Below are positions 1,762 through 28,342 of a DNA stretch of 64,000 bases, in pieces. The stretch lies in contig OZ253553.1 in assembly GCA_965262715.1 (NCBI GenBank), positions 64,001-128,000 on the forward strand, in the 5' to 3' direction. This stretch comes from Bdellovibrionales bacterium (lineage in GTDB: Bacteria > Bdellovibrionota > Bdellovibrionia > Bdellovibrionales > JAUICD01). The position numbers and the translations under genes are program-made. Each line of letters begins with the position of its first letter. The stretch's first letter is position 1. A model generated the notes under the pieces. The model made no database searches, was not told the origin of the DNA, and saw nothing but the letters and a program-made list of their open reading frames with translations.

Positions 1762-2854
1762 TTGTAAATTGATACAATATGTGCTTCTATGTGCCTTTCT
1801 TAAAAAAAACTTCTTATATTTCCATTTTAGTGAGTTTTAAAGATTTCCTTAACATGATGTAAGAGAATGAAGGGAGTCTCCTTACTAAAGAATAAACATG
1901 CTTTTGAGGTAGTCAGCTTTTTATTGAAGGTGTGAACCTTCAAGCTGACTACCCAAAAGTGGTCAGAGACCAGTTTATTTTTAGTGAAACAATTGCAAAT
2001 TGATACAATATGTGCTTCTATGTGCCTTTTTTAAAAATAACTTCTTATATTTCCATTTTAGTGAGTTTTAAAGATTTCCTTAACATGATGTAAGAGAATG
2101 AAGGGAGTCTCCTTACTAAAGAATAAACATGCTTTTGAGGTAGTCAGCTTTTTATTGAAGGTGTGAACCTTCAAGCTGACTACCCAAAAGTGGTCAGAGA
2201 CCAGTTTATTTTTAGTGAAACAATTGCAAATTGATACAATATGTGCTTCTATGTGCCTTTTTTAAAAATAACTCCTTATATTTCCATTTTAGTGAGTTTT
2301 AAAGATTTCCTTAACATGATGTAAGAGAATGAAGGGAGTCTCCTTACTAAAGAATAAACATGCTTTTGAGGTAGTCAGCTTTTTATTGAAGGTGTGAACC
2401 TTCAAGCTGATTAGATACATTTAAAGAGTCTATTATCTATAAATTAAACACTGTAATCTTTAAAAATCTCAGTGAGACAAGCCTTAACGCTTGTCTATTC
2501 CAAAAGTGGTCAGAGACCAGTTTATTTTTAGTGAAACAATTGCAAATTGATACAATATGTGCTTCTATATGCCTTTCTTAAAAATAACTTCTTATATTTC
2601 CATTTTAGTGAGTTTTAAAGATTTCCTTAACATGATGTAAGAGAATGAAGGGAGTCTCCTTACTAAAGAATAAACATGCTTTTGAGGTAGTCAGCTTTTT
2701 ATTGAAGGTGTGAACCTTCAAGCTGATTAGATACATTTAAAGAGTCTATCATCTATAAATTAAACACTGTAATCTTTAAAAATCTCAGTGAGACAAGCCT
2801 TAACGCTTGTCTATTCCAAAAGTGGTCAGAGACCAGTTTATTTTTAGTGAAACA
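1762..2854 (+). repeat. Tandem array 1 of structured non-coding units (231, 231, 316, ~315 bp)
   Basis: Units start at 1762, 1993, 2224, 2540. Confidence 0.95.
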
Positions 2855-2918
2855 GCATTGCCCTATTTGCCAAACGGCGTGAGCCAGTTTGGGGGCAATG
2901 CCAGAAAGTGGCCAGAGT
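2855..2918 (+). ncRNA. Partial diverged copy of the three-way-junction element
   Basis: gcattgccc...gggcaatgc stem, GTGA-loop hairpin, then cagaaagtggccagag as in the 27929/28186 variants. Confidence 0.5.
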
Positions 2919-3132
2919 TAGGAGATGGATTGTTTTTTAGAAAAACAAGGAAAAATCTTTGGAGCAATGATTTTGATGTTTTAAGCCATTTCTCGAAGTC
3001 CTCGATTGATCGCTTTGGTAGCGATCAATCTGCGGAAGATCTCGTCTTTGGCTTAAAACATCAACTCTTAATTCCTATGATAAAGATTATAGGTGATTTG
3101 TAAGGAGAAGAGACGGTAAGAGGAAGTTTTCC

Positions 3133-3276
3133 TTAACATTTTGTTAAAAAAGAAGAGATTCTCATTACTAAAAATAAACGGATTTTTTAGGCAATGAGTA
3201 TTTTACGAGGGCGTTAGCCGTCGTGCTCATTGCCCAAAAACAGTCAGAGACTGGTTTATTTTTAGTGAGACAGCAT
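3133..3276 (+). ncRNA. Diverged structured element (variant C) with upstream palindrome
   Basis: ttaacattttgttaa; actaaaaataaac/gtttatttttagt; ggcaatgagt/gctcattgcc; cagtc-aga-gactg. Confidence 0.65.
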
Positions 3277-3298
3277 CGAGATACATTTTAGTGAAATA

Positions 3299-3344
3299 TT
3301 TTACTAGGTTGACCTAGTAAAAATACTAGACATGCCTAGTAAAA
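3299..3344. promoter_or_regulatory. Operator-like palindrome(s) upstream of the ATPase gene
   Basis: ttttactagg-ttga-cctagtaaaa followed by a second imperfect copy tactagacatgcctagta. Confidence 0.5.
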
Positions 3345-3376
3345 TGATGCTACAGTTTAAGAAGGTTTTAAGATAA

Positions 3377-4546
3377 GTGTTGGAGGTAAATATTATGAGA
3401 AAACCCATAAGTAACTCTAATCTAGTGACCTTGCCCATTGTAAAAGATCTTAAATACAATCTCAAACAAAAAAATGCTTTAATACAAGTTGTTGTAGGTC
3501 CTAGGCAGGTAGGTAAAACTACTTCTGTAGATATGTATCTTAAGCATCTGAAAAAGGATCAATACCTATATGCATCTGCTGACGTGATAATTCAACGTTC
3601 AAATGCGTGGCTGCTTGAACAATGGGTTTTAGCCCAACAAAAGAATCCTAGAGGAACGTTGATTATAGATGAAATTCAGCAGGTGGAAAATTGGTCCACT
3701 CAGATCAAAAAACTATGGGATCAACAAAGAAGGCAAAGACACTCATTGAAAGTTATTCTTTTAGGCTCTAGTTCATTAGATATTCAAAAGGGTTTAGAAG
3801 AAAGCCTAACAGGACGTTATCAGTTGCATCAAATGCATCATTGGAATTTTGCAGAAAGTTATAAAGGTTATGGACTCTCCCATGAGGATTTCATAGTTTA
3901 TGGTGGATATCCTGGCAGTTATCGATTTCTCAATAATGAAGTAGAATGGTTAAAATATTTAAGGCATTCCATTATAGAGCCAGTGATAGGTAAGGATATT
4001 TTATCTCTAGCGAGAGTCAAATCAGCAGCCTTATTTAAACAGTGTTTTGATCTTGTGTGTTCTTATCCAGCTCAAGAGATCAGTTACACAAAATTGCTTG
4101 GTCAGTTACAAGATAAAGGCCACATTGATACAATAAAGTATTATTTGGAATTACTGGAGGGAGCTTTTTTAGTCAAACAGGTGTTTAAATTTTCTGTTAA
4201 GGAGAGGTTGGTGCGATCATCTTCGCCAAAACTTCTGCCTTTATGCCCGGCACTCTATTCTGTTTATAAAGATGCAGAATTAGATAGCAGTGAGAGAGGC
4301 AGAGCCTTTGAGGTGATTGTGGGCATGGTTTTAAACAGGCTGCCTGGCCAGGTGTTCTACTGGAGAGAACGCAATTATGAAGTAGATTATGTCTATAAAT
4401 ATAAAAAGAAGCTCTATGCCATAGAGGTCAAATCGGGACGTGCAAATAAAATAAAAGGACTGCAAAGGTTTATAGAAAAATTTAAGGGTAGCATCCCATT
4501 GATTGTCACTCCTCAAAATTATGAAAAGCTCCTCTCACAACTTTAG
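3377..4546 (+). CDS. AAA_14 / DUF4143 family ATP-binding protein
   Basis: Walker A GPRQVGKT, IIDEIQ, LGSS, YGGYP, C-terminal EVDY...AIEVKSG. Confidence 0.88.
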   Translation: MLEVNIMRKPISNSNLVTLPIVKDLKYNLKQKNALIQVVVGPRQVGKTTSVDMYLKHLKKDQYLYASADVIIQRSNAWLLEQWVLAQQKNPRGTLIIDEIQQVENWSTQIKKLWDQQRRQRHSLKVILLGSSSLDIQKGLEESLTGRYQLHQMHHWNFAESYKGYGLSHEDFIVYGGYPGSYRFLNNEVEWLKYLRHSIIEPVIGKDILSLARVKSAALFKQCFDLVCSYPAQEISYTKLLGQLQDKGHIDTIKYYLELLEGAFLVKQVFKFSVKERLVRSSSPKLLPLCPALYSVYKDAELDSSERGRAFEVIVGMVLNRLPGQVFYWRERNYEVDYVYKYKKKLYAIEVKSGRANKIKGLQRFIEKFKGSIPLIVTPQNYEKLLSQL

Positions 4547-4562
4547 CTGGCAACAAGTTTGA

Positions 4563-5575: not shown

Positions 5576-6544
5576 ATGGCAAGAGCAGATATAATCGTTA
5601 ATCTTATAAAATCGGGCTATTCGGGGGATAGAACTTCATTTAGAAAAATTGTTGAAACACTAATTTCTGAAGAACAAGCAAAGAACCATTATGTTTTTGC
5701 CAACCAGTTGAGAAATATCCTTTATCATGAAATTCCACAGCAACAATCATTTCATAGTATCACTAAATGTGATGATTTAATTTTTGAGTCAATTCCCAAA
5801 AGAAAATTAGGCAGTCTAGTTCTAAATGATACCATTCTCAAGCCTTGCAAGGAATTAGTCGAAGAACACAATCGCTCTGAATTATTACGCTCTTATGGGC
5901 TTGAACCTCGACATAGAATACTGCTTAAAGGGCCTCCTGGAAATGGAAAAACTAGTTTAGCTGAAGCTATGGCAGTAGAGCTTATGTATCCCTTGTTTAC
6001 GATAAGGTATGAGAGCCTAATCGGGAGTTATCTGGGAGAAACGGCAACAAGACTTCAAAAAATATTCGATTATGTAGCTACCCGAAAATGTATCCTCTTT
6101 TTTGATGAGTTTGACACTTTGGCCAAGGAACGAGGAGATACACGAGAAACAGGAGAGATTAAGAGAGTTGTAAGCTCTCTCCTACTGCAGATAGATCGGC
6201 TACCAAGTTATGTTGTTGTTATTACGGCAAGTAATCATCCCGAATTGCTTGACCGAGCAGTATGGAGAAGGTTTCAGCTTAAATTAGATTTATCATTGCC
6301 AAAGAAAAAAGATATTGAACAATTTGTTAAAAGTTTTTCCGATAAAACAAAAATTACATTTGATTATAGATACGAATATCTAGCAAAACAACTTCAAGGG
6401 CTTAGTTTTTCAGATATAGAGAATTTTTGTTTAGACATTCTCAGGCAATTTATATTATCAAAAAATCATCAATCTACAAGAATAATTGTTAAAAATAGAC
6501 TAAATCAATTGCGGACAACTACCACCAATTCAAAAAATGCCTAG
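5576..6544 (+). CDS. ietA: AAA+ ATPase of IetAS-type ATPase/S8-protease pair
   Basis: GPPGNGKT, FFDEFD, GEIKRVVSSLL, LDRAVWRRF; overlaps the downstream S8 gene. Confidence 0.8.
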   Translation: MARADIIVNLIKSGYSGDRTSFRKIVETLISEEQAKNHYVFANQLRNILYHEIPQQQSFHSITKCDDLIFESIPKRKLGSLVLNDTILKPCKELVEEHNRSELLRSYGLEPRHRILLKGPPGNGKTSLAEAMAVELMYPLFTIRYESLIGSYLGETATRLQKIFDYVATRKCILFFDEFDTLAKERGDTRETGEIKRVVSSLLLQIDRLPSYVVVITASNHPELLDRAVWRRFQLKLDLSLPKKKDIEQFVKSFSDKTKITFDYRYEYLAKQLQGLSFSDIENFCLDILRQFILSKNHQSTRIIVKNRLNQLRTTTTNSKNA

Positions 6545-9251
6545 CGACAGACCAATACTGAGTTTTAATAAACCAATAAAATCTCAACGAGAAAGCAACT
6601 CTCGCTTCTTCTCTAATCCAATAATTCCACCTTCGAGAGAACATCAAAGTATTCGCTTTGACGAAAAAATAAAAAATATGAAAAATGCATTCATTGTTGA
6701 TCATCCGTCAGGGCTTGAAGTAGAACGAGTACTTGTCCTTGAGGTGATTGGTGGCAGTATTGAAAAACTAAAAAATGCAGCGATAAATGTGGGACTTAGA
6801 TGGCTAGCCGAGATAGACGAAGATGAGATAGTTTTAACTGAAGATAGCGGTTTTTTGAAAAAAGTAGAAATTTCAGAAAAATTTTTTAAAACTAAAAATG
6901 TTGTGGACAATAATGATGAGTCAAAAGAAATATTTGATGCCTTAATCAAAAGTGATTTCCTTGTAAAAGAAAGCCAAGGGAGCAAAGCACCTTATTGTTG
7001 GAATACAGAAAAACAACCAGAAGAATTTAAAAACTTAATCTCCACGAGGTTTGAAGATAAAAGAGAAGCGATTATTACATCTTTAAGAGATAAAATTGAG
7101 GAAATGAATAAAAAATCTGTCAAGGGAAGACTATTCCTTTTTATGAGCAATATGGCAGGCATGGATAAGCTTTTAGCTATTTGGAAAAAATACCAAAAAA
7201 ATGAAATGATGCACGGGGAAGGTATATGGAAGAATCTTTTTCAATATTTGAATAATATTCGTTATTGGGGCGAAAATGACCGTCTAGAAGAGAATAATGT
7301 CTTAGATAAATTTAGAGAAGATATCGAGATTCGAGGCGACAAAGATAGCGTGCCATTTGAGTTAGAACTTTGGTACAACAGTGATAACAATAAAAGAACT
7401 GCCTATGAGAAAGATATTTCTAACAGAATAGAAGAGCTGGGAGGAGATATTAGCACAGTCAGTTTTTATGAAAATAAAGAAACTGGAATTCACTTAGCAA
7501 AAGTTAATTTACAAGCTCAAGAAATTAAAAAACTAGTTCGAAAAAATCATTATAATATACTATTCAAAAGTGAATTTATAAAATTTGTTCGACCATCTGG
7601 TCAAAACATATTACAAATAAATGTTGATGAGACAACGCCGATTGTGCCACCCGCCATAGAGCCTCAGGATATTTTCAATACTCCCCCTATTATCGCTCTA
7701 TTAGATGGCCTTCCCATGGAAAACCATGAGGCAATCAAAGACAAAGTCATTATAGATGACCCTGATTCTATGAGTGAAAATTATATGGCAGAGCAGAGGG
7801 TTCACGGGACTAGCATGGCATCTCTAATTTGCAATGGAGACTTAGAAAAACCTTCAAAAGCACTTGCAAGAAGAATTTATGTTAGACCTATTATGGAACC
7901 ACACCTTCTTCCAATAGGAAACGAAGTTGTGCCAGAGAATATCTTTTTTGAAGATATAATTGAAAGGTCTGTAAAAAGAATTTTCGAAGATTTAAAACTG
8001 AATGTCAAAGTCATCAATCTTTCAGTTTGCCATTCTTCGAGGTGGCTTTATTCAAATATGACTTCTGGTGGAAGACTTTTAGATTGGCCCTCTTGGAAAT
8101 ATAAAGTGCTCTTTTGTGTTAGTGCTGGAAATTGCATAGAACCAATACCTATTAAAGATGAAAGAAACCCCCAAAATATTGTTAGACAAATGAAAGAAGA
8201 TAATAGAAATAAAAAAATCTTAATGCCTGCAGACTCAATAAATGCAATAACAGTAGGGGCCTTACACCAAGATAAATGTATTGATTTTAATATAGGTCAG
8301 AGGATTGATCTCCTAGTTGGTTATAGTAATGTGCCCTCACCAATTTCTTCATTTGGACACGGATTTTCTTCCTCGATAAAGCCTGAAATTTTACTTCCTG
8401 GAGGAAGACAGCTATATGATAAGATAGATGGATTCTATAAAATAAATCCTTATTCCTCTGCACCAGGCCAAAAAACTGCCATTGGAAGCTCTACAGGGGC
8501 TAACGAATATGTTTATTCCCGTGGAACGAGTAATGCAACTGCATTAGCAACAAGGAATGTCGGTCTTATTTTTGAAATGCTAGAAGACGTTGGGTTTGGA
8601 ATACCTGATACATATCAAGCAGTGGTTTTAAAAACATTACTTGTTCATGGTGCTCGCCAGGGAAAAATTAAAAAAGAATTTTGCAAACTTCTTGATGAAA
8701 GCTTGATTAAAAAAGAGTTGTCCAAGTATTTAGGTTATGGTGCTCCAGATATTTCTCGGGTTATGAATTGCACAGAAAAGAGAGTAACTCTCTTGGGATT
8801 CAACTCAATATCCAATGATCAAAAGCACGAATATTCATTTCCCTTGCCAGCAATTCTGAGCGGTTCACAAAAAAAGAGAACTTTGGTTGTAACTCTATCT
8901 TGGATAACTCCCGTAAATATCTTTGACTCAAAGTATAGAGTTGCTCGTTTGACATTGGCTTCTCTTGGAAAGAACAATCTGTTGAATTTAAAAAGAAAGG
9001 AAATCGATAGTCGTCAATCTATTCGTGGTACTACTCAACATGAAATATTATCATCACGGAATGAGATAGAAAATTTTACCAATGATAAAGAAATAAAAAT
9101 CCCTATTGAGTGCATTTTTTCAAAAGAAACTTCCTCAATAAATCAGGAGATACCTTATGCTTTAGCTGTCACCCTAGAGATTGAAGATGATATAGAAATA
9201 TACGAAAAGATTAGATCTGCTGTTATGATTCAAGAGACAATTCACGCTTAA
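6537..9251 (+). CDS. ietS: S8 (subtilisin-like) serine protease of IetAS-type system
   Basis: Triad motifs LLDG, HGTSMAS, GTSNA; SAGN; KPE; no signal peptide. Confidence 0.8.
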   Translation: MPSDRPILSFNKPIKSQRESNSRFFSNPIIPPSREHQSIRFDEKIKNMKNAFIVDHPSGLEVERVLVLEVIGGSIEKLKNAAINVGLRWLAEIDEDEIVLTEDSGFLKKVEISEKFFKTKNVVDNNDESKEIFDALIKSDFLVKESQGSKAPYCWNTEKQPEEFKNLISTRFEDKREAIITSLRDKIEEMNKKSVKGRLFLFMSNMAGMDKLLAIWKKYQKNEMMHGEGIWKNLFQYLNNIRYWGENDRLEENNVLDKFREDIEIRGDKDSVPFELELWYNSDNNKRTAYEKDISNRIEELGGDISTVSFYENKETGIHLAKVNLQAQEIKKLVRKNHYNILFKSEFIKFVRPSGQNILQINVDETTPIVPPAIEPQDIFNTPPIIALLDGLPMENHEAIKDKVIIDDPDSMSENYMAEQRVHGTSMASLICNGDLEKPSKALARRIYVRPIMEPHLLPIGNEVVPENIFFEDIIERSVKRIFEDLKLNVKVINLSVCHSSRWLYSNMTSGGRLLDWPSWKYKVLFCVSAGNCIEPIPIKDERNPQNIVRQMKEDNRNKKILMPADSINAITVGALHQDKCIDFNIGQRIDLLVGYSNVPSPISSFGHGFSSSIKPEILLPGGRQLYDKIDGFYKINPYSSAPGQKTAIGSSTGANEYVYSRGTSNATALATRNVGLIFEMLEDVGFGIPDTYQAVVLKTLLVHGARQGKIKKEFCKLLDESLIKKELSKYLGYGAPDISRVMNCTEKRVTLLGFNSISNDQKHEYSFPLPAILSGSQKKRTLVVTLSWITPVNIFDSKYRVARLTLASLGKNNLLNLKRKEIDSRQSIRGTTQHEILSSRNEIENFTNDKEIKIPIECIFSKETSSINQEIPYALAVTLEIEDDIEIYEKIRSAVMIQETIHA

Positions 9252-9724: not shown

Positions 9725-12700
9725 TTATTTTGGTTTGTTACATCTTACCGTTTCACCGCCATTGAAACCTACACATTGCCATATATAAAATAGGCGACCT
9801 GATGGAAGTTCCTTTGCCGTGCCAACAGAGCAACCATTCCTTCGAGTCTGATCACAAACACCATCGATAGGTTTTGGTTTTTTGCAACGTGTAGCAGTAG
9901 CGCCGCCATTTGCACCTACACAGTGCCATGTATAATGTGTATTTGTATCTGCTATAGCACCGTCGTTTGCAGTGCCGGAAGAGCAGCCATTTCTTCGATT
10001 ATTATTACAAACACCGTTTACTGGTACAGGTTTTGCTCTGGTACAATGTAATGTATTTTTACCTCCATGCAAACCTTCACAAGTCCATAGATAAAGGGTG
10101 GAATGTGTATTATCTGGCAATGCCTTTGCAGTCCCAGCAGAGCAACCATTTCTTTGACTCGTATCACAAACGCCATCGATAGGTATCAGCTTTTGACAAT
10201 CTGTAGCAGTAGCGCCGCCATTTGCACCTACACAGTGCCATGTATAATGTGTATTTGTATCGTCTATAGCACCGTCGTTTGCAGTGCCGGAAGAGCAGCC
10301 ATTTTGTTGACTGTTATCACAAACACCGTTAACAGGTCTTGCCTTTTGACAATTTTGCGCTGTAGTGCCGCCATTTGAACCTTCACAGTGCCATGTATAA
10401 TGTGTATTTGTATCGGCTATTACGGCGTCGTTTGCTCTGCCAGCAGAGCAGCCATTTCGCTGACTGTTATTACAAACACCGTTTACTGGTGCAGGTTTTG
10501 CTTTTTGACAATTTTGTGCTGTAGTGCCGCCGTTTGCACCTACGCAGTGCCATGTATAATGTGTATTTGTATCGGCTATTACGGCGTCGTTTGCTCTGCC
10601 AGCAGAGCAGCCATTTCGCTGACTGTTATTACAAACACCGTTTACTGGTGCAGGTTTTGCTTTTTGACAATTTTGTGCTGTAGTGCCGCCATTTGCACCT
10701 ACGCAGTACCATCTATAATGTGTATTTGTATCTGCTATTGCGCTGTCGTTTGCAGTGCCGGAAGAGCAGCCATTTTGTTGGTTGTTATCACAAGCACCGT
10801 TAATAGATTTTGCCTTTTGACAATTTTGTGCTGTAGTGCCGCCGTTTGCACCTACGCAGTACCATCTATAATGTGTATTTGTATCTGCAATAGCGTTGTC
10901 ATTAGCAGTACCAGCAGAGCAGCCATTTTGTTGGTTGTTATCACAAGCACCGTTAATAGATTTTGCCTTTTGACAATTTTGTGCTGTAGTGCCGCCATTT
11001 GCACCTACGCAGTGCCATGTATAATGTGTATTTGTATCGGCTATTGCGCCATCGTTTGCAGTGCCGGAAGAACAACCATTTTGTTGACTGTTATTACAAA
11101 CGCCGTTGACTGGTGCAGGTTTCTCTTTTTGACAATTTGTAGCAGTAGTGCCGCCATTTGTACCTACACAGTGCCATGTATAATGTGTATTTGTATCTGC
11201 TATAGCTGAGTCATTTGCTGTGCCGGAAGAACAACCATTTTGTTGACTATTATTACAAACGCCATTGACAGGAGGGATAGTTTTTGTACAACTTGCTGTT
11301 GCACCACCATTTGAGCCAACACAATGCCATGTATAATGTGTATTTGTATCGGCTATAGCTGAGTCATTTGCTGTGCCCGAAGAACAACCATTTTGTTGAC
11401 TGTTATTACAAACGCCATTGACAGGAGGGATAGCTTTTGTACAACTTGCTGTTGCACCACCATTTGAGCCAACACAATGCCATGTATAATGAGTACTTGT
11501 ATCAGCTATTGCGCCGTCGTCTGGAGTCCCAGCAGTACAACCATTTCTGATGGTGTCATCGCCGCAAACACCATTTATTGGTGCTGCTGTATCAATGGCC
11601 ATACTGCAGCAACCTGTAGCATCAGTGCCATCGTTGGTACCTAAACACTGCCACTGATAATGAGTTTCTGAATCATCTATGTCATTTAAAGTACCTTGAA
11701 TACAACCATTCTTGACGGAGTTATTACATTCTCCATTTACGATTGAAGATGGATTACGTGTAACAGCTTGGCCTAATATAGAATTTTCACAGGTCTGATA
11801 ACTTAATGGGCCAGGTAAAGGTCCGGAAAAATAACAATAGCTGCCTTCTGATGGACAGTAATTATAATAAAACTGTTCAACTATATCATCTACCGAAGTT
11901 TGACTATCTATAGTGGTAGATGCTTGTATTGCTATAGTACTTTTTACACAGACTTCAGTTGAAGTGATGTCTATTACACCATCACTGCAATTTAGTACCT
12001 GCTCACTGCCACTATCAATTTGAAGTTCACATTGATTAGCATTTTGAATATTTGTATGTAATGTCCAAGTTCCACCTTCAGGTCTTAAATACTTATAAAT
12101 GTTATTACTTTCTAACATCACAGCAATTTCTTCATCATTATGTTTAATAGTTATTGGATTAAAATGAGGTTTAGAATTAGAGCTCACTTGCAAAACTTGT
12201 TTTCGATAGGTGAGGCAATCAGAATTGTCAGGATCTTCTGCAGACACCTCAATAGTAACAGAACCAGTAGATTCATCGGTAAAGTCTAATTCAATACTTT
12301 CACTATCATCTTCGTTTGTCTCCTCAGTTGAAGAAGGTAATGTGACTTTCCATATAATGTTCGAAAAATCTGTAGCATTCTTTAATTCAAAAGTGGCAGT
12401 CTGTCCAACAGTCAAAGAACCGCTTTCAAGAAATATCTCTAAGACATCTGTTAATGAACATTCCTCACCAATCACAAGTTTTTTACTGGCCACAGTTAAC
12501 AAATCGGAGTTTTTATAAGATGTAGCAAAAATATCATAACTTCCAGATTTTTTAAATTGATATTGATATTCTGGTTCAGTTGTTGTCTCTTCTCCATCAG
12601 TAACAATTTCAAAGGCTCTAGTGATTTTCCATTTAAAATCTTCAGAATCAGAATGACTATTCATAACCTTTAGTTTCACATCACTATCAATTAGGAAATA

Positions 12701-12949
12701 ATCTTCTATCGAGATGCTTTCATCTTCTGATGGTAAATAAGCAATAATATAACCTTTATCATTAGATACCGTTTGTTCAGAAAACAAGTTAGGAGCTTGA
12801 CTTACATTTGAACCGCAGTTTTGAAAAGCTAATAACAATAAAAGTGAAGCCAATAGAAGTAGATAAAAGGCATTATTAAAACTTAACAAAAAATGCTTTT
12901 TTATGTTTCGTTTTTTTATAACCCTAAAGAATTTCATTATTCTTGTCAT
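9725..12949 (-). CDS. Cys-rich repeat lipoprotein, copy 2 (1074 aa)
   Basis: AFQNC lipobox; beta-rich N-domain of ~400 aa; about 13 repeats of ~50-54 aa (NGVC..NGC..G....YTWHCVG.NGG....C). Confidence 0.9.
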   Translation of the reverse strand: MTRIMKFFRVIKKRNIKKHFLLSFNNAFYLLLLASLLLLLAFQNCGSNVSQAPNLFSEQTVSNDKGYIIAYLPSEDESISIEDYFLIDSDVKLKVMNSHSDSEDFKWKITRAFEIVTDGEETTTEPEYQYQFKKSGSYDIFATSYKNSDLLTVASKKLVIGEECSLTDVLEIFLESGSLTVGQTATFELKNATDFSNIIWKVTLPSSTEETNEDDSESIELDFTDESTGSVTIEVSAEDPDNSDCLTYRKQVLQVSSNSKPHFNPITIKHNDEEIAVMLESNNIYKYLRPEGGTWTLHTNIQNANQCELQIDSGSEQVLNCSDGVIDITSTEVCVKSTIAIQASTTIDSQTSVDDIVEQFYYNYCPSEGSYCYFSGPLPGPLSYQTCENSILGQAVTRNPSSIVNGECNNSVKNGCIQGTLNDIDDSETHYQWQCLGTNDGTDATGCCSMAIDTAAPINGVCGDDTIRNGCTAGTPDDGAIADTSTHYTWHCVGSNGGATASCTKAIPPVNGVCNNSQQNGCSSGTANDSAIADTNTHYTWHCVGSNGGATASCTKTIPPVNGVCNNSQQNGCSSGTANDSAIADTNTHYTWHCVGTNGGTTATNCQKEKPAPVNGVCNNSQQNGCSSGTANDGAIADTNTHYTWHCVGANGGTTAQNCQKAKSINGACDNNQQNGCSAGTANDNAIADTNTHYRWYCVGANGGTTAQNCQKAKSINGACDNNQQNGCSSGTANDSAIADTNTHYRWYCVGANGGTTAQNCQKAKPAPVNGVCNNSQRNGCSAGRANDAVIADTNTHYTWHCVGANGGTTAQNCQKAKPAPVNGVCNNSQRNGCSAGRANDAVIADTNTHYTWHCEGSNGGTTAQNCQKARPVNGVCDNSQQNGCSSGTANDGAIDDTNTHYTWHCVGANGGATATDCQKLIPIDGVCDTSQRNGCSAGTAKALPDNTHSTLYLWTCEGLHGGKNTLHCTRAKPVPVNGVCNNNRRNGCSSGTANDGAIADTNTHYTWHCVGANGGATATRCKKPKPIDGVCDQTRRNGCSVGTAKELPSGRLFYIWQCVGFNGGETVRCNKPK

Positions 12950-13281: not shown

Positions 13282-13350
13282 TCATTGAGTTATTCGAAGT
13301 TTCTATCTTTTTTCGATATGGCATTAAGGTCATGAAAAAGTCCAGGACCG

Positions 13351-13897
13351 TTGCAAATTGATACAATATGTGCTTCTATGTGCCTTTTTTAAAAATAACT
13401 CCTTATATTTCCATTTTAGTGAGTTTTAAAGATTTCCTTAACATGATGTAAGAGAATGAAGGGAGTCTCCTTACTAAAGAATAAACATGCTTTTGAGGTA
13501 GTCAGTTTTTTATTGAAGGTGTGAACCTTCAAGCTGACTACCCAAAAGTGGTCAGAGACCAGTTTATTTTTAGTGAAACAATTGCAAATTGATACAATAT
13601 GTGCTTCTATGTGCCTTTCTTAAAAAAAACTTCTTATATTTCCATTTTAGTGAGTTTTAAAGATTTCCTTAACATGATGTAAGAGAATGAAGGGAGTCTC
13701 CTTACTAAAAATAAACAAGTTTTTGAGGCAATCAGCATTTTGCTGACAGGGATACATCCCGTAGTGTTAACTGTCACGCTGATTGCCCAAAAATAGCCAG
13801 AGGCTAGTTCATTTTTAGTGAAACAATTGCAAATTGATACAATATGTGCTTCTATATGCCTTTTTTGAAAATAACTCCTTATATTTCCATTTTAGTA
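13351..13897 (+). repeat. Tandem array 2 (231-bp unit, 245-bp variant-B unit, partial unit)
   Basis: Units start at 13351, 13582, 13827. Confidence 0.92.
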
Positions 13898-19498: not shown

Positions 19499-22108
19499 TT
19501 ACTGGTCTGGTATCGCTTTTTGACAATCTGTAGCAGTAGTGCCGCCTCTTCTACCTTCACAATGCCATCTATAGTGAGTACTTGTATCAGCTATAGCTCT
19601 GTCATTAGAAATTCCAGTAGTACAGCCATTTCTTTGGCTGTTATTACAAACTCCGGTGATAGGTTTTAGTCTCAAACAATTTGCTGTTCTACCTCCATGC
19701 AAACCTTCACAATGCCATCTATGATAGGCTGTATCTGAAAGTGCTTTTGCAGTGCCCGAAGAGCAACCATTCCTTTGACTCGTATCACAAACGCCATGGA
19801 TAGGTTTCCGTATCTGACAATTTGTTACAGTACTGCCACCATGCAGCCCTACACAATGCCATGTATAATGAGTATTTGTATCTGCTATTACGTCGTCGTT
19901 TGCTGTGCCCGAAGAGCAACCATTCCTTTGATTTTCATCACAAACACCATCGATAGGAGGAGGTATCAGTTTTTGACAATCTGTAGCCGTAGTGCCGCCA
20001 TTTAAACCTACACAGTGCCATGTATAATGTGTATTTGTATCTGCTATTACGGCATCGTTTGCAGTACCAGCAGTACAACCATTTTGTTGACTGTTATCAC
20101 AAACACCGTTAACAGGTTTTGCTTTTTGACAATTCGTAGCTGTAGTGCCGCCATTTGTACCTTCACAGTGCCATGTATAATGAGTACTTGTATCTGCTAT
20201 CGCTGCATCATTTGCTCTGCCAGCAGTACAGTTATTTCTTTGGCTGTTATTACAAACTCCGGTGATAGGTTTTAGTCTCAAACAATTTGCTGTTCTACCT
20301 CCATGCAAACCTTCACAATGCCATCTATGATAGGCTGTATCTGAAAGTGCTTTTGCAGTGCCCGAAGAGCAACCATTCCTTTGACTCGTATCACAAACGC
20401 CATGGATAGGTTTCCGTATCTGACAATTTGTTACAGTACTGCCACCATGCAGCCCTACACAATGCCATGTATAATGAGTATTTGTATCTGCTATTACGTC
20501 GTCGTTTGCTGTGCCCGAAGAGCAACCATTCCTTTGATTTTCATCACAAACACCATCGATAGGAGGAGGTATCAGTTTTTGACAATCTGTAGCCGTAGTG
20601 CCGCCATTTAAACCTACACAGTGCCATGTATAATGAGTACTTGTATCAGCTATTGCGCCGTCGTCTGGAGTCCCAGCAGTACAACCATTTTTGATGGTGT
20701 CATCGCCGCAAACACCATTTATTGGTGCTGCTGTATCAATGGCCATACTGCAGCAACCTGTAGCATCAGTGCCATCGTTGGTACCTAAACACTGCCACTG
20801 ATAATGAGTTTCTGAATCATCTATTAAAGTACCTTGAATACAACTATTCTTAACGGAGTTATTACATTCTCCATTTACGATTGAAGATGGATTGCGTGTA
20901 ACACTCTGGCTTAATATAGAATTGTCACAGGTCTGATAACTTAATGGACCAGGTAAAGGTCCGGAAAAATAACAATAGCTGCCTTCTGATGGACAGTAAT
21001 TATAATAAAACTGTTCAATTATATCATCTGCATCATCTACCGAAGTTTGACTATCTATAGTGGTAGAAGAAGAGGTTGAAGCTTGTATTGCTATAGTACT
21101 TTTTACACATGATTCACTTGAAGTGATATCTATTACACCATCACTGCAATTTAGTACATCCTCACTGCCACTATCAATTTGAAGTTCACATTGATTCGCA
21201 TTTTGAATATTTGTATGTAATGTCCAAGTTCCACCTTCAGGTCTTAAATATTTATAAATGTTATTACTTTCTAACATCACAGCAATTTCTTCATCATTAT
21301 GTTTAATAGTTATTGGATTAAAATGAGGTTTAGAATTAGAGCTCACTTGCAAAACTTGTTTTCGATAGGTGAGGCAATCAGAATTGTCAGGATCTTCTGC
21401 AGACACCTCAATAGTAACAGAACCAGCAGATTCATTGGTAAAGTCTAATTCAATACTTTCACTATCATCTTCGTTTGTCTCCTCAGTTGAAGAAGGTAAT
21501 GTGACCTTCCATAAGATGTTCGAAAAATCTATAGCATTCTTTAATTCAAAAGTGGCAGTCTGTCCAACAGTCAAAGAACCGCTTTCAAGAAAGATCTCTA
21601 AGACATCTGTTAATGAGCATTCCTCACCAATCACAAGTTTTTTACTGGCCACAGTTAACAAATCGGAGTTTTTATAAGATGTAGCAAAAATATCATAACT
21701 TCCAGGTTTTTTAAATTGATATTGATATTCTGGTTCAGTTGTTGTCTCTTCTCCATCAGTAACAGTTTCAAAGGATCTAGTGATTTTCCATTTAAAATTT
21801 TCAGAATCAGAATGACTATTCATAACCTTTAGTTTCACATCACTATCAATTAGGAAATAATCTTCTATCGAGATGCTTTCATCTTCTGATGGTAAATAAG
21901 CAATAATATAACCTTTATCATTAGATACCGTTTGTTCAGAAAACAAGTTAGGAGCTTGACTTACATTTGAACCGCAGTTTTGAAAAGCTAATAACAATAA
22001 AAGTGAAGCCAATAGAAGTAGATAAAAGGCATTATTAAAACTTAACAAAAAATGCTTTTTTATGTTTCGTTTTTTTATAACCCTAAAGAATTTCATTATT
22101 CTTGTCAT
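19499..22108 (-). CDS. Cys-rich repeat lipoprotein, copy 3 (869 aa)
   Basis: Same N-domain; repeats include an internal 606-bp duplication. Confidence 0.9.
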   Translation of the reverse strand: MTRIMKFFRVIKKRNIKKHFLLSFNNAFYLLLLASLLLLLAFQNCGSNVSQAPNLFSEQTVSNDKGYIIAYLPSEDESISIEDYFLIDSDVKLKVMNSHSDSENFKWKITRSFETVTDGEETTTEPEYQYQFKKPGSYDIFATSYKNSDLLTVASKKLVIGEECSLTDVLEIFLESGSLTVGQTATFELKNAIDFSNILWKVTLPSSTEETNEDDSESIELDFTNESAGSVTIEVSAEDPDNSDCLTYRKQVLQVSSNSKPHFNPITIKHNDEEIAVMLESNNIYKYLRPEGGTWTLHTNIQNANQCELQIDSGSEDVLNCSDGVIDITSSESCVKSTIAIQASTSSSTTIDSQTSVDDADDIIEQFYYNYCPSEGSYCYFSGPLPGPLSYQTCDNSILSQSVTRNPSSIVNGECNNSVKNSCIQGTLIDDSETHYQWQCLGTNDGTDATGCCSMAIDTAAPINGVCGDDTIKNGCTAGTPDDGAIADTSTHYTWHCVGLNGGTTATDCQKLIPPPIDGVCDENQRNGCSSGTANDDVIADTNTHYTWHCVGLHGGSTVTNCQIRKPIHGVCDTSQRNGCSSGTAKALSDTAYHRWHCEGLHGGRTANCLRLKPITGVCNNSQRNNCTAGRANDAAIADTSTHYTWHCEGTNGGTTATNCQKAKPVNGVCDNSQQNGCTAGTANDAVIADTNTHYTWHCVGLNGGTTATDCQKLIPPPIDGVCDENQRNGCSSGTANDDVIADTNTHYTWHCVGLHGGSTVTNCQIRKPIHGVCDTSQRNGCSSGTAKALSDTAYHRWHCEGLHGGRTANCLRLKPITGVCNNSQRNGCTTGISNDRAIADTSTHYRWHCEGRRGGTTATDCQKAIPDQ

Positions 22109-22440: not shown

Positions 22441-22509
22441 TCATTGAGTTATTCGGAATTTCTATCTTTTCTCGATATGGCATTAAGGTCATGAAAAAGT
22501 CCAGGACCG

Positions 22510-24527
22510 TTGCAAATTGATACAATATATGCCTCTATATGCCTTTTTTGAAAATAACTCCTTATATTTCCATTTTAGTGAGTTTTAAAGATTTCCTTAA
22601 CATGATGTAAGAGAATGAAGGGAGTCTCCTTACTAAAGAATAAACATGCTTTTGAGGTAGTCAGTTTTTTATTGAAGGTGTGAACCTTCAAGCTGACTAC
22701 CCAAAAGTGGTCAGAGACCAGTTTATTTTTAGTGAAACAATTGCAAATTGATACAATATATGCCTCTATATGCCTTTTTTGAAAATAACTCCTTATATTT
22801 CCATTTTAGTGAGTTTTAAAGATTTCCTTAACATGATGTAAGAGAATGAAGGGAGTCTCCTTACTAAAGAATAAACATGCTTTTGAGGTAGTCAGTTTTT
22901 TATTGAAGGTGTGAACCTTCAAGCTGACTACCCAAAAGTGGTCAGAGACCAGTTTATTTTTAGTGAAACAATTGCAAATTGATACAATATATGCCTCTAT
23001 ATGCCTTTTTTGAAAATAACTCCTTATATTTCCATTTTAGTGAGTTTTAAAGATTTCCTTAACATGATGTAAGAGAATGAAGGGAGTCTCCTTACTAAAG
23101 AATAAACATGCTTTTGAGGTAGTCAGTTTTTTATTGAAGGTGTGAACCTTCAAGCTGACTACCCAAAAGTGGTCAGAGACCAGTTTATTTTTAGTGAAAC
23201 AATTGCAAATTGATACAATATATGCCTCTATATGCCTTTTTTGAAAATAACTCCTTATATTTCCATTTTAGTGAGTTTTAAAGATTTCCTTAACATGATG
23301 TAAGAGAATGAAGGGAGTCTCCTTACTAAAGAATAAACATGCTTTTGAGGTAGTCAGCTTTTTATTGAAGGTGTGAACCTTCAAGCTGACTACCCAAAAG
23401 TGGTCAGAGACCAGTTTATTTTTAGTGAAACAATTGCAAATTGATACAATATGTGCTTCTATATGCCTTTTTTGAAAATAACTCCTTATATTTCCATTTT
23501 AGTGAGTTTTAAAGATTTCCTTAACATGATGTAAGAGAATGAAGGGAGTCTCCTTACTAAAGAATAAACATGCTTTTGAGGTAGTCAGCTTTTTATTGAA
23601 GGTGTGAACCTTCAAGCTGACTACCCAAAAGTGGTCAGAGACCAGTTTATTTTTAGTGAAACAATTGCAAATTGATACAATATGTGCTTCTATGTGCCTT
23701 TCTTAAAAATAACTCCTTATATTTCCATTTTAGTGAGTTTTAAAGATTTCCTTAACATGATGTAAGAGAATGAAGGGAGTCTCCTTACTAAAGAATAAAC
23801 ATGCTTTTGAGGTAGTCAGTTTTTTATTGAAGGTGTGAACCTTCAAGCTGACTACCCAAAAGTGGTCAGAGACCAGTTTATTTTTAGTGAAACAATTGCA
23901 AATTGATACAATATGTGCTTCTATGTGCCTTTCTTAAAAATAACTCCTTATATTTCCATTTTAGTGAGTTTTAAAGATTTCCTTAACATGATGTAAGAGA
24001 ATGAAGGGAGTCTCCTTACTAAAGAATAAACATGCTTTTGAGGTAGTCAGCTTTTTATTGAAGGTGTGAACCTTCAAGCTGATTAGATACATTTAAAGAG
24101 TCTATCATCTATAAATTAAACACTGTAATCTTTAAAAATCTCAGTGAGACAAGCCTTAACGCTTGTCTATTCCAAAAGTGGTCAGAGACCAGTTTATTTT
24201 TAGTGAAACAATTGCAAATTGATACAATATGTGCTTCTATATGCCTTTTTTGAAAATAACTCCTTATATTTCCATTTTAGTGAGTTTTAAAGATTTCCTT
24301 AACATGATGTAAGAGAATGAAGGGAGTCTCCTTACTAAAAATAAACAAGTTTTTGAGGCAATCAGCATTTTGCTGACAGGGATACATCCCGTAGTGTTAA
24401 CTGTCACGCTGATTGCCCAAAAATAGCCAGAGGCTAGTTCATTTTTAGTGAAACAATTGCAAATTGATACAATATATGCTTCTATGTGCCTTTCTTGAAA
24501 ATAACTCCTTATATTTTCTTTTTAGTA
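22510..24527 (+). repeat. Tandem array 3 (6x231 bp, 1x316 bp, 1x245 bp, partial unit)
   Basis: Units start at 22510, 22741, 22972, 23203, 23434, 23665, 23896, 24212, 24457. Confidence 0.95.
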
Positions 24528-24689: not shown

Positions 24690-24775
24690 GCTTAAATGTT
24701 CAAAAAAAACATACAAACCATGTTCTAACCTAAGTTCCTCTTTTACATAGTGATGAAATATACGAGGAGTGATAA
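24690..24775 (-). pseudogene. Fragment of a second AbiEi-like antitoxin gene
   Basis: catacaaaccatg...acatagt.atgaa..atacgagga matches 26645-26713. Confidence 0.5.
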
Positions 24776-24845
24776 GAATCGTGCAATAAGAAAATATCAT
24801 ACATGGTTATGTGGAGGCTTTGAAGTTTCCTTCTATTCCACTGGA

Positions 24846-25668
24846 TTAGTTTTTCTGAGAAGTGTTTAAGGTTTTCTTCATTTCATCTATACCCATAATT
24901 CTGTCCAAAATGGTAAAGCGATGACGATAGTTTGTTGCAGCAGCCTCTGAATTGAACAAGTATGGGTCATTATAAAATCCTCTATACGTTGTTAAATAAA
25001 TAGCCACTGCTTGAGCAAAGTCTTGCTCAATATCAAAATCCCTATCATCTTCAGAAAGCCTGATCTCACCATAAGTGAAGGTACCATCTCTTACAATAGC
25101 ATCATACCACTCTTGACTAGAATAACCAGATGCAGGGTGTCTTGCAATTAAATGTCCCAATTCATGTCGCATTGTTTGAGTAGCTTTAGCTCTATATCTT
25201 GCATCTTGGAAATCATAATAAAAATCGACTTGAATTGCGTTATAAATAAGATAAACAATACCACTGTCATCATCATTGATAACTCTTGGTGACAGTTGAG
25301 GAAACATTTGTTGTAGCCAGCCACATTCACTACAATCAGATATAAAAGAATTCGAAGAGGCTAAAAACTCACCATGTTGTCTGGGAGAATCAGTTTCCCT
25401 TTTTATTTTAATAAAATGCACTTTGCTTAACTATCTCTCCGGCATTTTACCCAAGATAGGTCTAACTTCTTGAAGTATTTCTGAAGAAGAATGTTCCCTA
25501 CTTTCTTCAACAGCAAGTATCAAAGACTTCTGCTGTCCATTTGCTAAAAAGGAAACATCATAAATATGATAACAAGTATTATTGAAAGGTAGTTCTTCCG
25601 GTATATCAATATCACAGGCATACTGCATTCTTATATCTTGTAAAAAGTATCCAAGTGTCAAATCTGCT
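24846..25668 (-). pseudogene. Zinc-metallopeptidase-like gene (HELGH), 5'-truncated, with internal TAG
   Basis: Paralog of 31425-32418; TAG at 25431 sits where the paralog has TGG (PERW). Confidence 0.7.
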
Positions 25669-26207
25669 GTCCCCAATTTTTCTGCAAATATAAATTCTGC
25701 AGGATAAACAGAAAGAGATATCTCTTTAATTTCAGGAAGTAAAAACAAGTCCTTTGATGTGATAAACTTCACATCAACATCATCTCCAGCGCATACATCA
25801 ATTTTTAAACTCTCTGATTGGCTACGATCAAATAAGCTCCAATTGATTTCAAAACGATCTCCTCCATAAGGAGTTTCTCGCTCCATTTTTGATTTACTTA
25901 AGCTTTTAAAATGAAATCCATCTTTCAAGTCTATTTTCATGGCTTCTAGTAAGACATCTTGAACTTGTACAATCTCCATGTCCCTTACCAAAAAATCAAT
26001 ATCAACTGTAAAACGAGGGATTTCAAGATGTTGATACAACCTTAAAAGTAAACTACCTCCTTTCCAAATATAATGACGACTCTCTCTAAGTTGACAAAGC
26101 CTCGCTAAAAACCTTTCTTGACTTAAAAGAGTTTGCATTTGAGGCATTCTAAGACCAAGCTCAGTAGCTTTCTTTTCAAGAGCCTCTCTTACTCTGCAGA
26201 TGTCCAT
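25431..26207 (-). pseudogene. abiEii: AbiEii nucleotidyltransferase toxin, C-terminally truncated and fused in frame to the peptidase fragment
   Basis: ERFLARL, WKGGSLL, RFTVDIDF, YPAEFIFAEKL, then abrupt switch to ADLTLGYFLQ. Confidence 0.8.
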
Positions 26208-26211
26208 ATCA

Positions 26212-26790
26212 TTATAAATAAGCCTCTATGAGCTTATCAAAATGTCCTTTCACTCGAAAATCAACAGCTAACTTTTTCATCTTTGAAATATTAATAGGAA
26301 TACCTTTCTTTTGAGCAGTGAACATAACTTTTAAAACCATAGAAATTGATTTTTGTGTGCGTAATAAGTCTATTAAAGTACGTTCAATTGAAGTTATTGG
26401 AATACCATTTACTTTTCTTACTGCTTTTTTATAAAGGGTATCTTTAACTCTATAAAACCTCACATCTTTAATTTTTCTTTTGGGAACATTAGAAAGAGGT
26501 ACTATCAAATGAATATTTCTGGGAGCCTCATCTGTCAGGTCATAAAACTTTAATGCAGATTCAAGCCCAAGAATAGCTTGTGGGATCATTTTGAGTTTTT
26601 CTTTGATTAAAGACTCAAAATCAAAGCTTAAATGTTCAGGAAAAGCATACAAACCATGCCCTAATCTAACTAAAACCTTCTTTTTTTTAACATAGTAATG
26701 AAGCATACGAGGACTTACACCTTTTTTCTGAGCCTGCTTAGTTCGAAAAGGACCTTGTCCTTTAAGTTTAAATAATCTTTGATTTCCCAT
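26212..26790 (-). CDS. abiEi: AbiEi type IV antitoxin
   Basis: LVRLGHGLY, SALKFYDLTD, ITSIERTLIDLLR; directly upstream of abiEii. Confidence 0.85.
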   Translation of the reverse strand: MGNQRLFKLKGQGPFRTKQAQKKGVSPRMLHYYVKKKKVLVRLGHGLYAFPEHLSFDFESLIKEKLKMIPQAILGLESALKFYDLTDEAPRNIHLIVPLSNVPKRKIKDVRFYRVKDTLYKKAVRKVNGIPITSIERTLIDLLRTQKSISMVLKVMFTAQKKGIPINISKMKKLAVDFRVKGHFDKLIEAYL

Positions 26791-26869
26791 ATGTAAATTA
26801 TAGGTTTTATTTATATGAATTACAACCTATTTATTACATTTTTTCTTTTCAACGATGTACTATATTTCT

Positions 26870-27341
26870 TAAATCATCAGAAGGCTAACTTTGTGCCAGT
26901 GAGCTTTCTGGCAAGTTCTTCTGATGATGAAAATCCCTGTTTAATCCTTTTTGTAGCCATTTTCTCAATATTAAATAAAATCTCTTTGGCGTGGGTAACC
27001 TGATCCAAATAGCAATGATATATTTATAATGATTTTAATGAGTGTTTCCATTATTCCCTCCTGTTTTTTAAAATTCGTGTATAAATATTCTTTATGATTT
27101 TACGTTCTCTTAAAGCCCTTAAAGTAGAGCTTTTTGACCATGAAAATTGAGTTAGCTTCTCAATATTACGAGTGGAAAGCTTGAGATCAATATAAAGTTT
27201 CTGTAGAATTTTAAAGCTTTTTTCTGGGGTATTAAAAAAATGTGTAATAAATAAAGATACATAGCTGGAGTCATAAGTGGAGATGTCCAATACTTCAGCT
27301 ACTCCACCAATCCCAGTTTTAGACGAACCTGGGCCTACCAA
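26870..27341 (-). pseudogene. Remnants R1 (96-aa ORF 27051-27341) and R2
   Basis: Most complete copy of the recurrent module. Confidence 0.55.
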
Positions 27342-27665
27342 ACGATCATTGTGATGTAAGGCATAAGTTCCAAATCCAACAGCTTTTCTTATATTTGAAA
27401 ACCGATCTTATTGAGATTTATTTTGATGAAACGATGCCTCAAGGGGTCTTGCAAGTTTACGAAAGGGCAATACGACTCCCGGTTGATGAGGAGTTTCTTT
27501 AAAACAAAATATCTACTAATCTGTTAACTATTCCTTCTTATAAAATCTATTACCGAAGTCCTTTGTAGCACACACTCTTCTACTAGTTTTGACTAGAAGT
27601 CATCTCAAAAATGCTCCTAGAGAGAAAAGTTTTAAAAAAGATACCAGTTTTGCATTTAATTTATT

Positions 27666-27803
27666 TCACTCAAAATAAATCAACCTCTGGTTGTTTTTGG
27701 GCAGCCAGCTTGACGGTTAACACCGTCAATAAAATGCTGACTGCCTCAAAAATCCATTTATTTTAAGTAAGGAGAATGTCTTCATTCTTTTACATCATGT
27801 TAA
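27666..27803 (-). ncRNA. Structured element variant D (opposite strand)
   Basis: On the minus strand: ttaacatgatgtaa; acttaaaataaat/atttattttgagt; ggcagtcagc/gctggctgcc; caacc-aga-ggttg. Confidence 0.65.
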
Positions 27804-27928
27804 AGAAAATTTCCTTCATTCTGTTTTACTCAAAATGAATAGAAGACAAGCCTCTCGAGGCTAGCCTTTTTGAGGATTGCCCATGAAATAAATCTAGGTA
27901 CTGATCCGATGGCAAGAATAAAACTTCC

Positions 27929-28083
27929 CTAACATTGTGTTAAGAAACAAGAAGATCCTCCTACTAAAATGCATTAGCCTTTCTAGGCAGTAAGCTATTT
28001 GCCAACGGCCATAAGAGCCGTCGGGCTTACTGCCAGAAAGTGACCAGAGGCTCGCCTCGAGAGGTCAGATGCATTTTAGTGAA
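27929..28083 (+). ncRNA. Structured element variant E
   Basis: taacattgtgttaa; actaaaatgcat/atgcattttagt; ctttct-a-ggcagtaagc/gcttactgcc-agaaag; tgacc...ggtca. Confidence 0.62.
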
Positions 28084-28185
28084 AAAAAAGCTGATTCATT
28101 TTGAGGAAGACAGCCCTTTTATATAAGAAATTAGAGGTAATAGGTACAAACGTTTATAGACTTTTACTGAAACAGCACGATTCCC

Positions 28186-28342
28186 TTAACATGATGTTAA
28201 ATAATGAGGAGTATCTGGTTTACTAAAATGCAGCAGGCTTTCTAGGCAGTAAGCTATTTGCCGACGGCCATAAGAGCCGTCGGGCTTACTGCCAGAAAAT
28301 GACCAGAGGCTCGCCTCGAGAGGCGAGATGCATTTTAGTGAA
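28186..28342 (+). ncRNA. Structured element variant F
   Basis: Perfect ttaacatgatgttaa; near-copy of variant E with perfect cgacggc/gccgtcg. Confidence 0.62.

Follow-up and report, generated by a model that had tools for sequence, protein, structure and literature searches.

The window analysed here, a 64,000-nt stretch of a Bdellovibrionales bacterium (contig OZ253553.1, positions 64,001 to 128,000 of the forward strand), contains 18 copies of a structured element of about 150 nt. We consider it probable that this element is a new, genus-restricted, non-autonomous interspersed mobile repeat held to one single-strand fold. By analogy, the best explanation is a repeat of the same kind as REP/REPIN, ERIC or miniature inverted-repeat transposable element (MITE)-type repeats. 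The assignment as a mobile interspersed repeat is based on the copy number, dispersal, near-random orientation and nesting of the element, on the lack of a conserved neighbouring gene, and on its recent spread in a related species.

Architecture and conservation of the fold

The unit is composed of a conserved 5' module of about 40 nt and a three-way junction. The module is found in every copy as a TTTCCYTAACAT..TGTTAA hairpin followed by a GGAG..CTCC hairpin, and the 3' motif TTTTAGTGAAA is also conserved. An initial annotation of this DNA had located the core from P1 to P1, but the size it assigned, 105–125 nt, is too small because each copy also carries the 5' module. The remaining architecture that it had described, comprising P1, P2 with one bulged A, a U-rich bulge, a variable apical hairpin and a P3 capped by AGA, is confirmed by the sequence and by an alignment of six variants (A–F), all of which are present at the positions originally given.

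Conservation extends to the unpaired bases, as seen in the 240 distinct full copies of the window's genome. The bulged A is A in 99% of these, the P3 loop is A in 98%, G in 98% and A in 95%, and three positions of the U-rich bulge are T in 92–98%. For the 5' motif TTTCCYTAACAT, 9 of the 12 columns are 97–100% conserved, two are 80–84% conserved and the Y column is C in 97%.

The same 240 copies were aligned with MAFFT without regard to structure, and RNAalifold recovers the three-way junction from this alignment. Most pairs show two to four Watson–Crick types; pair 75–108, for example, is CG in 91 copies, GC in 70, AT in 40 and TA in 16. The pair cells amount to 8300 Watson–Crick, 490 G-U, 161 A-C and 319 other combinations. 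One outer pair is an invariant U.G (219 copies), and with this pair set aside G-U cells number 271 versus 161 for A-C. A model-fitted alignment of 138 distinct sequences from three organisms, which leans towards the structure of the model, has 96.5% of its cells paired, versus 80.3% when shuffled, with changes on both sides at 29 of 40 pairs. Double-change cells number 940 versus 276 in the shuffles, and none of 500 shuffles reaches the observed values; controls with slid partners give at most 0.07 versus 0.472 observed. The structure-blind alignment agrees with the model-fitted one on covariation. The earlier observation that pairing holds while the sequence changes is thus borne out at genome scale.

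Fold z-scores of individual copies range from -6.2 to -9.5 on both strands, whether folded as RNA or as DNA, and the written strand is a little more stable. It seems that the fold of one strand is preserved, since G-U exceeds A-C and since the bulged A and the asymmetric bulge have not been 'corrected' to a perfect palindrome. This agrees with the initial suggestion of selection on a single-stranded fold, for which the G-U excess on the written strand is an argument of moderate weight.

Arrays can also be compared with their orthologues in a relative about 90% identical to the window's genome. Between the two, identity is about 95% in the spacers, the 5' module and P1. P2 and its apical hairpin carry many differences, with the two arms matched to each other, and the units are homogeneous within each genome. 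Judged from these sequences, P2 looks like the product of whole-hairpin replacement followed by concerted evolution, and not of stepwise compensation; part of the covariation signal therefore represents replacement between lineages. The comparison additionally reveals a 25-nt deletion between two repeated 3' motifs of a nested pair.

Within the window, copies were located by scanning with a covariance model (CM) built from the six variants. Tandem Repeats Finder (TRF) delineates three arrays with a period of 231 nt, at 1762–2854, 22510–24082 (6.8 copies, 99% matches) and, for a short one, near 13330–13830. The copies are as follows.

1845..1991, plus strand: full copy of variant A (5' module and P1/P2/P3), opening unit of a 231-nt-period array (CM 163.2 bits; TRF array 1762–2410)
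2076..2222, plus strand: full copy of variant A (CM 163.2 bits)
2307..2538, plus strand: variant A with an insertion of 85–89 nt in the P2 3' strand after GCTGA (CM 102.6 bits; split nhmmer matches to profile positions 1–109 and 93–150)
about 2622..2855, plus strand: second insertion-bearing unit of variant A (CM match 2623–2795; also matched by nhmmer at genome 66622–66728 and 66796–66855)
3129..3272, plus strand: full copy of variant C, solitary (CM 149.9 bits; RNA fold z -7.75)
13434..13580, plus strand: full copy of variant A (CM 161 bits)
13665..13825, plus strand: full copy of variant B, with a longer apical hairpin (CM 156 bits)
22593..23894, plus strand: six tandem units of variant A, period 231 (CM 161–163 bits), at 22593–22739, 22824–22970, 23055–23201, 23286–23432, 23517–23663 and 23748–23894
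23979..24210, plus strand: insertion-bearing unit of variant A (CM 103.6 bits; sequence)
24295..24455, plus strand: full copy of variant B, final unit of the array (CM 156 bits)
27662..27807, minus strand: full copy of variant D (CM 165.4 bits)
27925..28086, plus strand: full copy of variant E, with the P3 region lengthened by a CTCGCC..GGCGAG-type hairpin (CM 132.1 bits)
28182..28345, plus strand: full copy of variant F (CM 139.9 bits)

Variant D has a twin at genome 1621075–1621221 that is 99.3% identical and has about 80 nt of flank in common on each side. The form with the 85–89 nt insertion accounts for 3 of the 18 window copies. The insert (about 2405–2494, 2716–2813 and 24085–24170) has small hairpins of its own and takes the place of 4 nt of the P2 3' strand, and the split form recurs at genome 57487–57909, 1975587–1976151 and 2255500–2255733. 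The CTCGCC..GGCGAG hairpin of variants E and F is similar to the left-end stem of IS200, a likeness judged to be coincidental because P3 varies freely.

Copy number, genomic placement and taxonomic range

The genome to which the window belongs is a single contig of 2.94 Mb with 33.6% G+C. A profile of the six variants returned 453 matches, including 290 full-length copies (154 on the plus and 136 on the minus strand), and the element covers 2.06% of the genome. There are 178 loci, made up of 130 single copies and 48 head-to-tail arrays of 2–14 units with periods of 158–431 nt, and 3'-truncated copies outnumber 5'-truncated ones. A crude call of open reading frames places 280 of the 290 full copies between genes. 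Tandem, convergent and divergent gaps contain 98, 39 and 33 loci, where the background shares by length are 57%, 19% and 24%, respectively; placement is close to the share of intergenic length that each class represents. Orientation is likewise near random, with 55 loci co-oriented and 43 anti-oriented with the genes of tandem gaps and no replichore bias by GC-skew (87 leading versus 91 lagging). What had been viewed as a small set of non-coding RNA (ncRNA) genes in at least six versions is therefore a population of several hundred matches, distributed by length over all kinds of intergenic region.

A search of Bdellovibrionota genomes with the CM located the element within the window's genus, and three contigs belonging to a third assembly also carry it. 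It is present in the only other species of the genus (hereafter, the congener), which has a complete chromosome of 2.57 Mb, and on contigs C1, C4 and C11 of a 1.6-Mb assembly from another genus. Those three contigs are syntenic with the window's genome and 82–95% identical to it, whereas the genes of the congener itself are only about 68–79% identical, which makes it probable that they were misbinned and derive from a third species of the window's genus, closer than the congener. No copy was found in the 36 other genomes of the order or in the 150 of the phylum, and an exact-pattern scan of a viral collection and of JGI metagenomes gave no matches. Within the first 400 kb of the congener, the region covered by our counts of placement and termini in that species, there are 235 profile matches, 129 of them full length, a density several times that of the window's genome. 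Genes bracketed by copies number 19 and 10 in the two species; there is one weak cross-match between these sets, and no conserved neighbouring gene is bracketed in both.

The two species share almost no gene order, and conserved blocks of 1–3 kb nearly all map elsewhere, which fits heavy rearrangement in genomes rich in repeats and insertion sequences (ISs). The congener encodes eukaryote-like proteins, including large ankyrin-repeat proteins, a Ser/Thr kinase with a PEGA domain and an Arf-like small GTPase, and these suggest an intracellular, host-associated lifestyle.

Rfam 15 returned no match at the gathering score for the whole window. With permissive filters over 1700–3400, the best matches (E 0.077–0.68) involved unrelated families and the opposite strand and stayed far below gathering scores; ARAGORN identified no tRNA or tmRNA gene in the window. 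The initial statement that the element was not recognised as a known riboswitch or tRNA is consistent with these results. A search of the full-text literature, which did not use the sequence motifs of the element, gave no description of it.

Across the genome, the 3' end of the element is associated with the ends of tRNA genes. At five tRNA genes that face the element convergently it lies 0–3 nt from the CCA end, and at two tRNAs in the same orientation it lies 0–6 nt upstream of the 5' end. Taking all matches, 7 of 341 3' ends fall within 6 nt of a tRNA end, as opposed to 0 of 397 5' ends, and in 2000 trials of random intergenic placement the count averaged 0.49 and reached at most 4. The congener repeats this pattern at 2 of the 5 tRNAs in its first 400 kb. 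At one locus, partial tRNA 3' copies lie between copies of the element. A 100% identical atypical copy, at genome 937316–937720 and 948180–948430, is flanked by partial copies of the 3' end of tRNA-Pro, and this points to recombination through tRNA 3' segments at these loci.

The element could conceivably be an expressed structured RNA family, small-RNA-like or cis-acting and present in very many copies, with a junction selected for binding of protein or RNA, although we regard this as unlikely. Such an RNA would account for a fold kept through matched changes with a conserved bulged A, AGA loop and U-rich bulge, for the excess of G-U over A-C on a written strand that folds slightly better, and for a consensus maintained between two species whose genes are now only about 70–77% identical. 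It would also suit the seven 3' ends that abut tRNA genes, as RNase P would set the 3' end of the two copies lying upstream of a tRNA if these were co-transcribed, and no Rfam family accounts for the element. However, no sigma-70-like promoter is predicted in the units or in the array spacers, orientation to flanking genes is near random with no conserved gene context, and both strands fold almost equally well. Hundreds of diverged, often truncated or nested copies are moreover unlike a functionally selected gene family. The initial proposal of a candidate new ncRNA family thus holds for the fold, its matched changes, the conserved unpaired bases and the lack of an Rfam match, but does not accommodate the number, dispersal, near-random orientation and nesting of the copies.

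On either strand, P3 with its flanking T-runs scores as a weak terminator-like site. Such sites are present in every copy scanned, formed by P3 followed by GTTTATTTTT and by its complement followed by TTTTTGGG, and they number 8 versus 0.5 expected and 5 versus 0.7 expected. P1 is the same on both strands, so that either orientation presents hairpins and then a T-run. These features would be explained by a host-domesticated bidirectional terminator or insulator, spread by an old mobile repeat, in which P1 serves as the A-tract/U-tract pair and P2 and P3 as the terminator hairpins. This seems improbable, as the P3 stem has only 5 pairs and divergent gaps are not depleted (33 of 170 loci, where such gaps make up 19% of the total number and 24% of the total length); nor would this reading account for arrays of up to 14 units or for the conserved 5' module.

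Movement, termini and the search for a mobiliser

Recent movement is evident in the congener, where 32 dispersed pairs are at least 96% identical. Both flanks are unrelated in 28 of the 30 best pairs, and identity runs from TTTCC to GAGTGAAA. Since copies that are 96–99% identical are embedded in unrelated flanks, the element has moved recently in this species.

Copies are also nested within one another. There are 46 truncated 5' parts that directly precede a new copy, and 28 of these end at profile positions 105–119, within the P2 3' strand. The linker TAAAYAAYAAYRRT is found at all 25 distinct junctions of this class and resembles an A-rich leader, itself weakly conserved, that precedes solitary copies. 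The outer copy continues beyond the inner one in 9 of 21 composites, taking up again with GAGGxx(x)GTTTATTTT, the 3' half of P3 together with the 3' strand of P1, and a shorter outer remnant is seen in 3 more; one locus is doubly nested. The structure of these composites implies that copies insert into, or recombine with, each other at a preferred place. Short-read contigs of four public runs break at every copy, with joints that link only different copies, and comparison of empty sites with the relative of about 90% identity yielded only messy, multi-repeat indels.

The termini bear on a further explanation, in which the element is a classical MITE with terminal inverted repeats (TIRs) moved by a DDE transposase, with an internal fold that is carried along as a passenger and stays palindromic through mechanical correction of the hairpins. 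The inverse of the 5' terminus, ATGTTAAGGAA(A), follows 20 of 110 3' ends in the congener, with a match of 20–25 bp in some copies, and in that species an unrelated GGATCCGGGA-rich repeat family begins with this 5' terminus too. A terminus common to two families suggests that a shared protein reads it. Several DDE IS families are present in both genomes. Even so, an element of this type is doubtful. The inverted terminus follows none of 300 3' ends in the window's genome and is often lacking from recently moved copies in the congener; beyond the ATGTTAAGGAA(A) subset the two termini have only TTTC in common. No target-site duplication was found (46 copies) and no IS with matching ends was identified (in the congener, within its first 400 kb). 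Mechanical correction, furthermore, ought to remove the bulged A and the asymmetric bulge, both of which are in fact 92–99% conserved.

Recombination sites of integrons provide another comparison. In attC sites the folded single strand is recognised, structure is kept while sequence is free, bases are extrahelical and the apical part varies. The element is similar in that its stem is closed by inverse core-like ends, one base is extrahelical, the apical part varies freely and structure rather than sequence is conserved. The arrays of element and spacer could on this basis be cassette arrays, if the element, folded as single-stranded DNA, were an attC-like site or some other target of site-specific recombination; the partial tRNA 3' copies that flank element copies at some loci would be in keeping with this. 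Such an origin is nevertheless highly improbable. Conserved AAC/GTT cores are lacking (pair 57–135 is A-T in 122 copies and T-A in 97), copies are found on both strands all over the chromosome, and the would-be cassettes, the spacers within an array, are identical and non-coding. The genome has only two tyrosine-recombinase genes (PF00589), neither of them next to an array.

For the mobile repeat that we favour, the following steps are proposed. A trans-acting protein would recognise the folded strand and the termini, 5' TTTCCYTAACAT... and 3' ...TTTTAGTGAAA, and would then copy or move the element. Only variants that keep the fold would leave descendants, from which matched changes between subfamilies would follow. 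After insertion, ordinary recombination could allow two neighbouring copies to grow into tandem arrays of element and spacer, and gene conversion would exchange whole P2 hairpins between copies. The P2 3' strand and the P3 loop would be the places where one copy inserts into or recombines with another, and deletions between repeated 3' motifs would shorten the resulting composites. The copy number, distribution, conserved fold, recent dispersal in the congener, nesting, exchange of hairpins and association with tRNA ends are observed. That a mobilising enzyme reads the fold is here something that we infer, as is the nature of that enzyme and of the strand and nucleic acid that it would read.

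A number of results weigh against this proposal. No mobilising gene was identified. The sole Y1 transposase of the window's genome (PF01797) is IS200-like with its own, different hairpins, the nearest copy of the element being about 1.8 kb away, and PF01797 has no match in the congener versus 3 in a member of the family that lacks the element. IS110 (PF01548) has no match in the window's genome or in the congener, and reverse transcriptase (RT; PF00078) has none in the congener. A Y2 transposase was not found, in a search that was also silent for the control genomes. Inverted pairs of the terminus spaced 600–4500 nt apart enclose no transposase (the best match 20 of 40 positions) and instead enclose ankyrin, kinase, ETF-QO and similar genes, and the inverted ends of three abundant IS families are unrelated to the ends of the element. 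Among 46 copies with distinct flanks, direct repeats of 3–8 nt at offsets of 0–9 were not above shuffled pairing, and thus no target-site duplication is apparent. Dispersed copies in the window's genome are mostly only 72–84% identical, and near-identical pairs nearly all have the same flanks, which makes them segmental duplications, as exemplified by the three window arrays upstream of three paralogous large lipoprotein genes; activity in this genome may be over. Matched changes in long inverted repeats can also arise mechanically, through hairpin template switching or whole-hairpin conversion, and part of the covariation therefore need not reflect selection. Finally, conservation of the fold and its unpaired bases between the two species is strong, beyond that of most selfish repeats, and this leaves room for a role at the level of the host or of RNA.

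The congener lacks Y1, IS110 and RT genes (Y2 was likewise not found, with the control silent), and we have for this reason considered that the junction might be the handle of a mobility or copying system outside the known classes. Alternatively, the copies might be templates of a structured RNA, and the habit of lying at tRNA ends a form of tRNA-linked processing or targeting. Either would be unlikely.

Other candidate mobilisers were considered and set aside. The window's genome has three RT genes, one of group II intron type and two others; a copy of the element lies about 440 nt downstream of the 590-aa RT, on the same strand and within an island bounded by tRNAs, and the other two have no adjacent copy. 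Retro-mobilisation, SINE-like or derived from a group II intron, was rejected on the grounds that the congener has no RT and that 3'-truncation is commoner than 5'-truncation. A palindromic element derived from IS200/IS605, a group in which a bias towards the lagging strand is usual, was rejected given the lack of a Y1 gene in the congener and the even split between leading and lagging strands. An IS110-type bridge-RNA element was discounted, there being no PF01548 match in either element-bearing genome. Transposase_31 (YhgA/Rpn-like) genes number 19 in the window's genome, about 7 of them within about 600 nt of a copy when counted by eye, and 16 in the congener; with 16 also in the element-free relative, there is no clean co-occurrence that would mark these genes as the mobiliser.

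REPs are single hairpins of about 20–40 nt, often arranged as inverted doublets, with a single-copy Y1 gene, flanked by REPs, linked to each family. REP/REPIN repeats mobilised by RAYT (TnpA-REP) Y1 transposases are the subject of two reports (Bertels & Rainey 2011, PMC3116915; Corneloup et al. 2021, PMC8266576). The element resembles them in having hundreds of intergenic copies in which the hairpin fold rather than the sequence is kept, in persisting within a lineage, and in being non-autonomous without target duplication. It differs in its length of about 150 nt, its three-way junction and its asymmetric 5' module, and in that the congener, with the most copies, lacks a Y1 gene. A REP/REPIN-RAYT system in the strict sense was rejected, as there is no co-occurring, element-flanked Y1 gene and the unit is asymmetric and about 150 nt long, not a doublet of short palindromes.

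MITE-type repeats of bacteria include Correia/NEMIS in Neisseria, RUP and BOX in Streptococcus pneumoniae, ERIC/IRU in enterobacteria and RPE in Rickettsia. At the level of general description, and not of sequence, the element is similar to these in its size range of 100–200 nt, intergenic location, stable predicted folds, mosaic forms and possible terminator-like side effects, and also in the congener subset with inverted termini of 12–25 bp and the second family with the same terminus. It is distinguished by the lack of a target-site duplication, by a partner IS that was not found, by the absence of a right-hand inverted terminus from most copies, and by an internal junction, bulged A and AGA loop that are conserved far beyond the termini.

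Neighbouring features and significance of the family

The arrays of the window accompany three paralogous large lipoprotein-like genes (2–1360, 9725–12949 and 19499–22108, all on the minus strand), which have their N-terminal half in common and contain differing numbers of a 51-residue Cys-rich repeat (153-nt period in the DNA). Upstream of each is the same region of about 300 nt, followed by an element array of about 4, 2 and 8 units, respectively. The length of the array may vary in the manner of a contingency locus. Elsewhere in the window, an AAA ATPase of 322 aa (5576–6544, plus strand) overlaps a 904-aa protein with a subtilase S8 domain (6537–9251, plus strand) in a gene pair that looks like a two-gene system of a defence island; a DUF4143 ATPase, IS fragments and AbiEii/AbiEi (25431–26790, minus strand) are nearby.

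The window's genome also contains a second short repeat family of about 110 nt, TTCCCGG-rich and including AAATCAGTAAACAACAAC, with at least 15 copies (for example at genome 21293, 401125, 762864, 1504436 and 2420732). A TAAACAACAAC segment of this family resembles the linker in composite copies of the main element. In addition, one copy of an IS1634-like element of about 1.93 kb lies between 293-nt direct repeats that are 99.7% identical (genome 923817–924109 and 926027–926319). Very long target duplications are characteristic of the IS1634 family, and the 293-nt repeats fit this.

The present analysis adds to the description of the element its site of nested insertion, the replacement of whole hairpins in orthologous arrays and the association of its 3' end with tRNAs, together with its recent mobility in the congener, a terminus common to a second family and the failure of known transposase classes to co-occur with it. 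The family explains much of the non-coding structure and the tandem arrays of these genomes, and probably also their heavy rearrangement, and ncRNA scans of them need the family to be masked first. It represents a clean natural example of an entire repeat population, with about 290 full copies here and proportionally several times as many in the congener, in which a complex fold and its invariant bulges are maintained. Should a mobilising enzyme read the fold, it would be none of the usual candidates, and its discovery would reveal a further mechanism by which structure guides the mobility of DNA or RNA; should the fold instead function as RNA, it would constitute a new and very abundant class of bacterial RNA.

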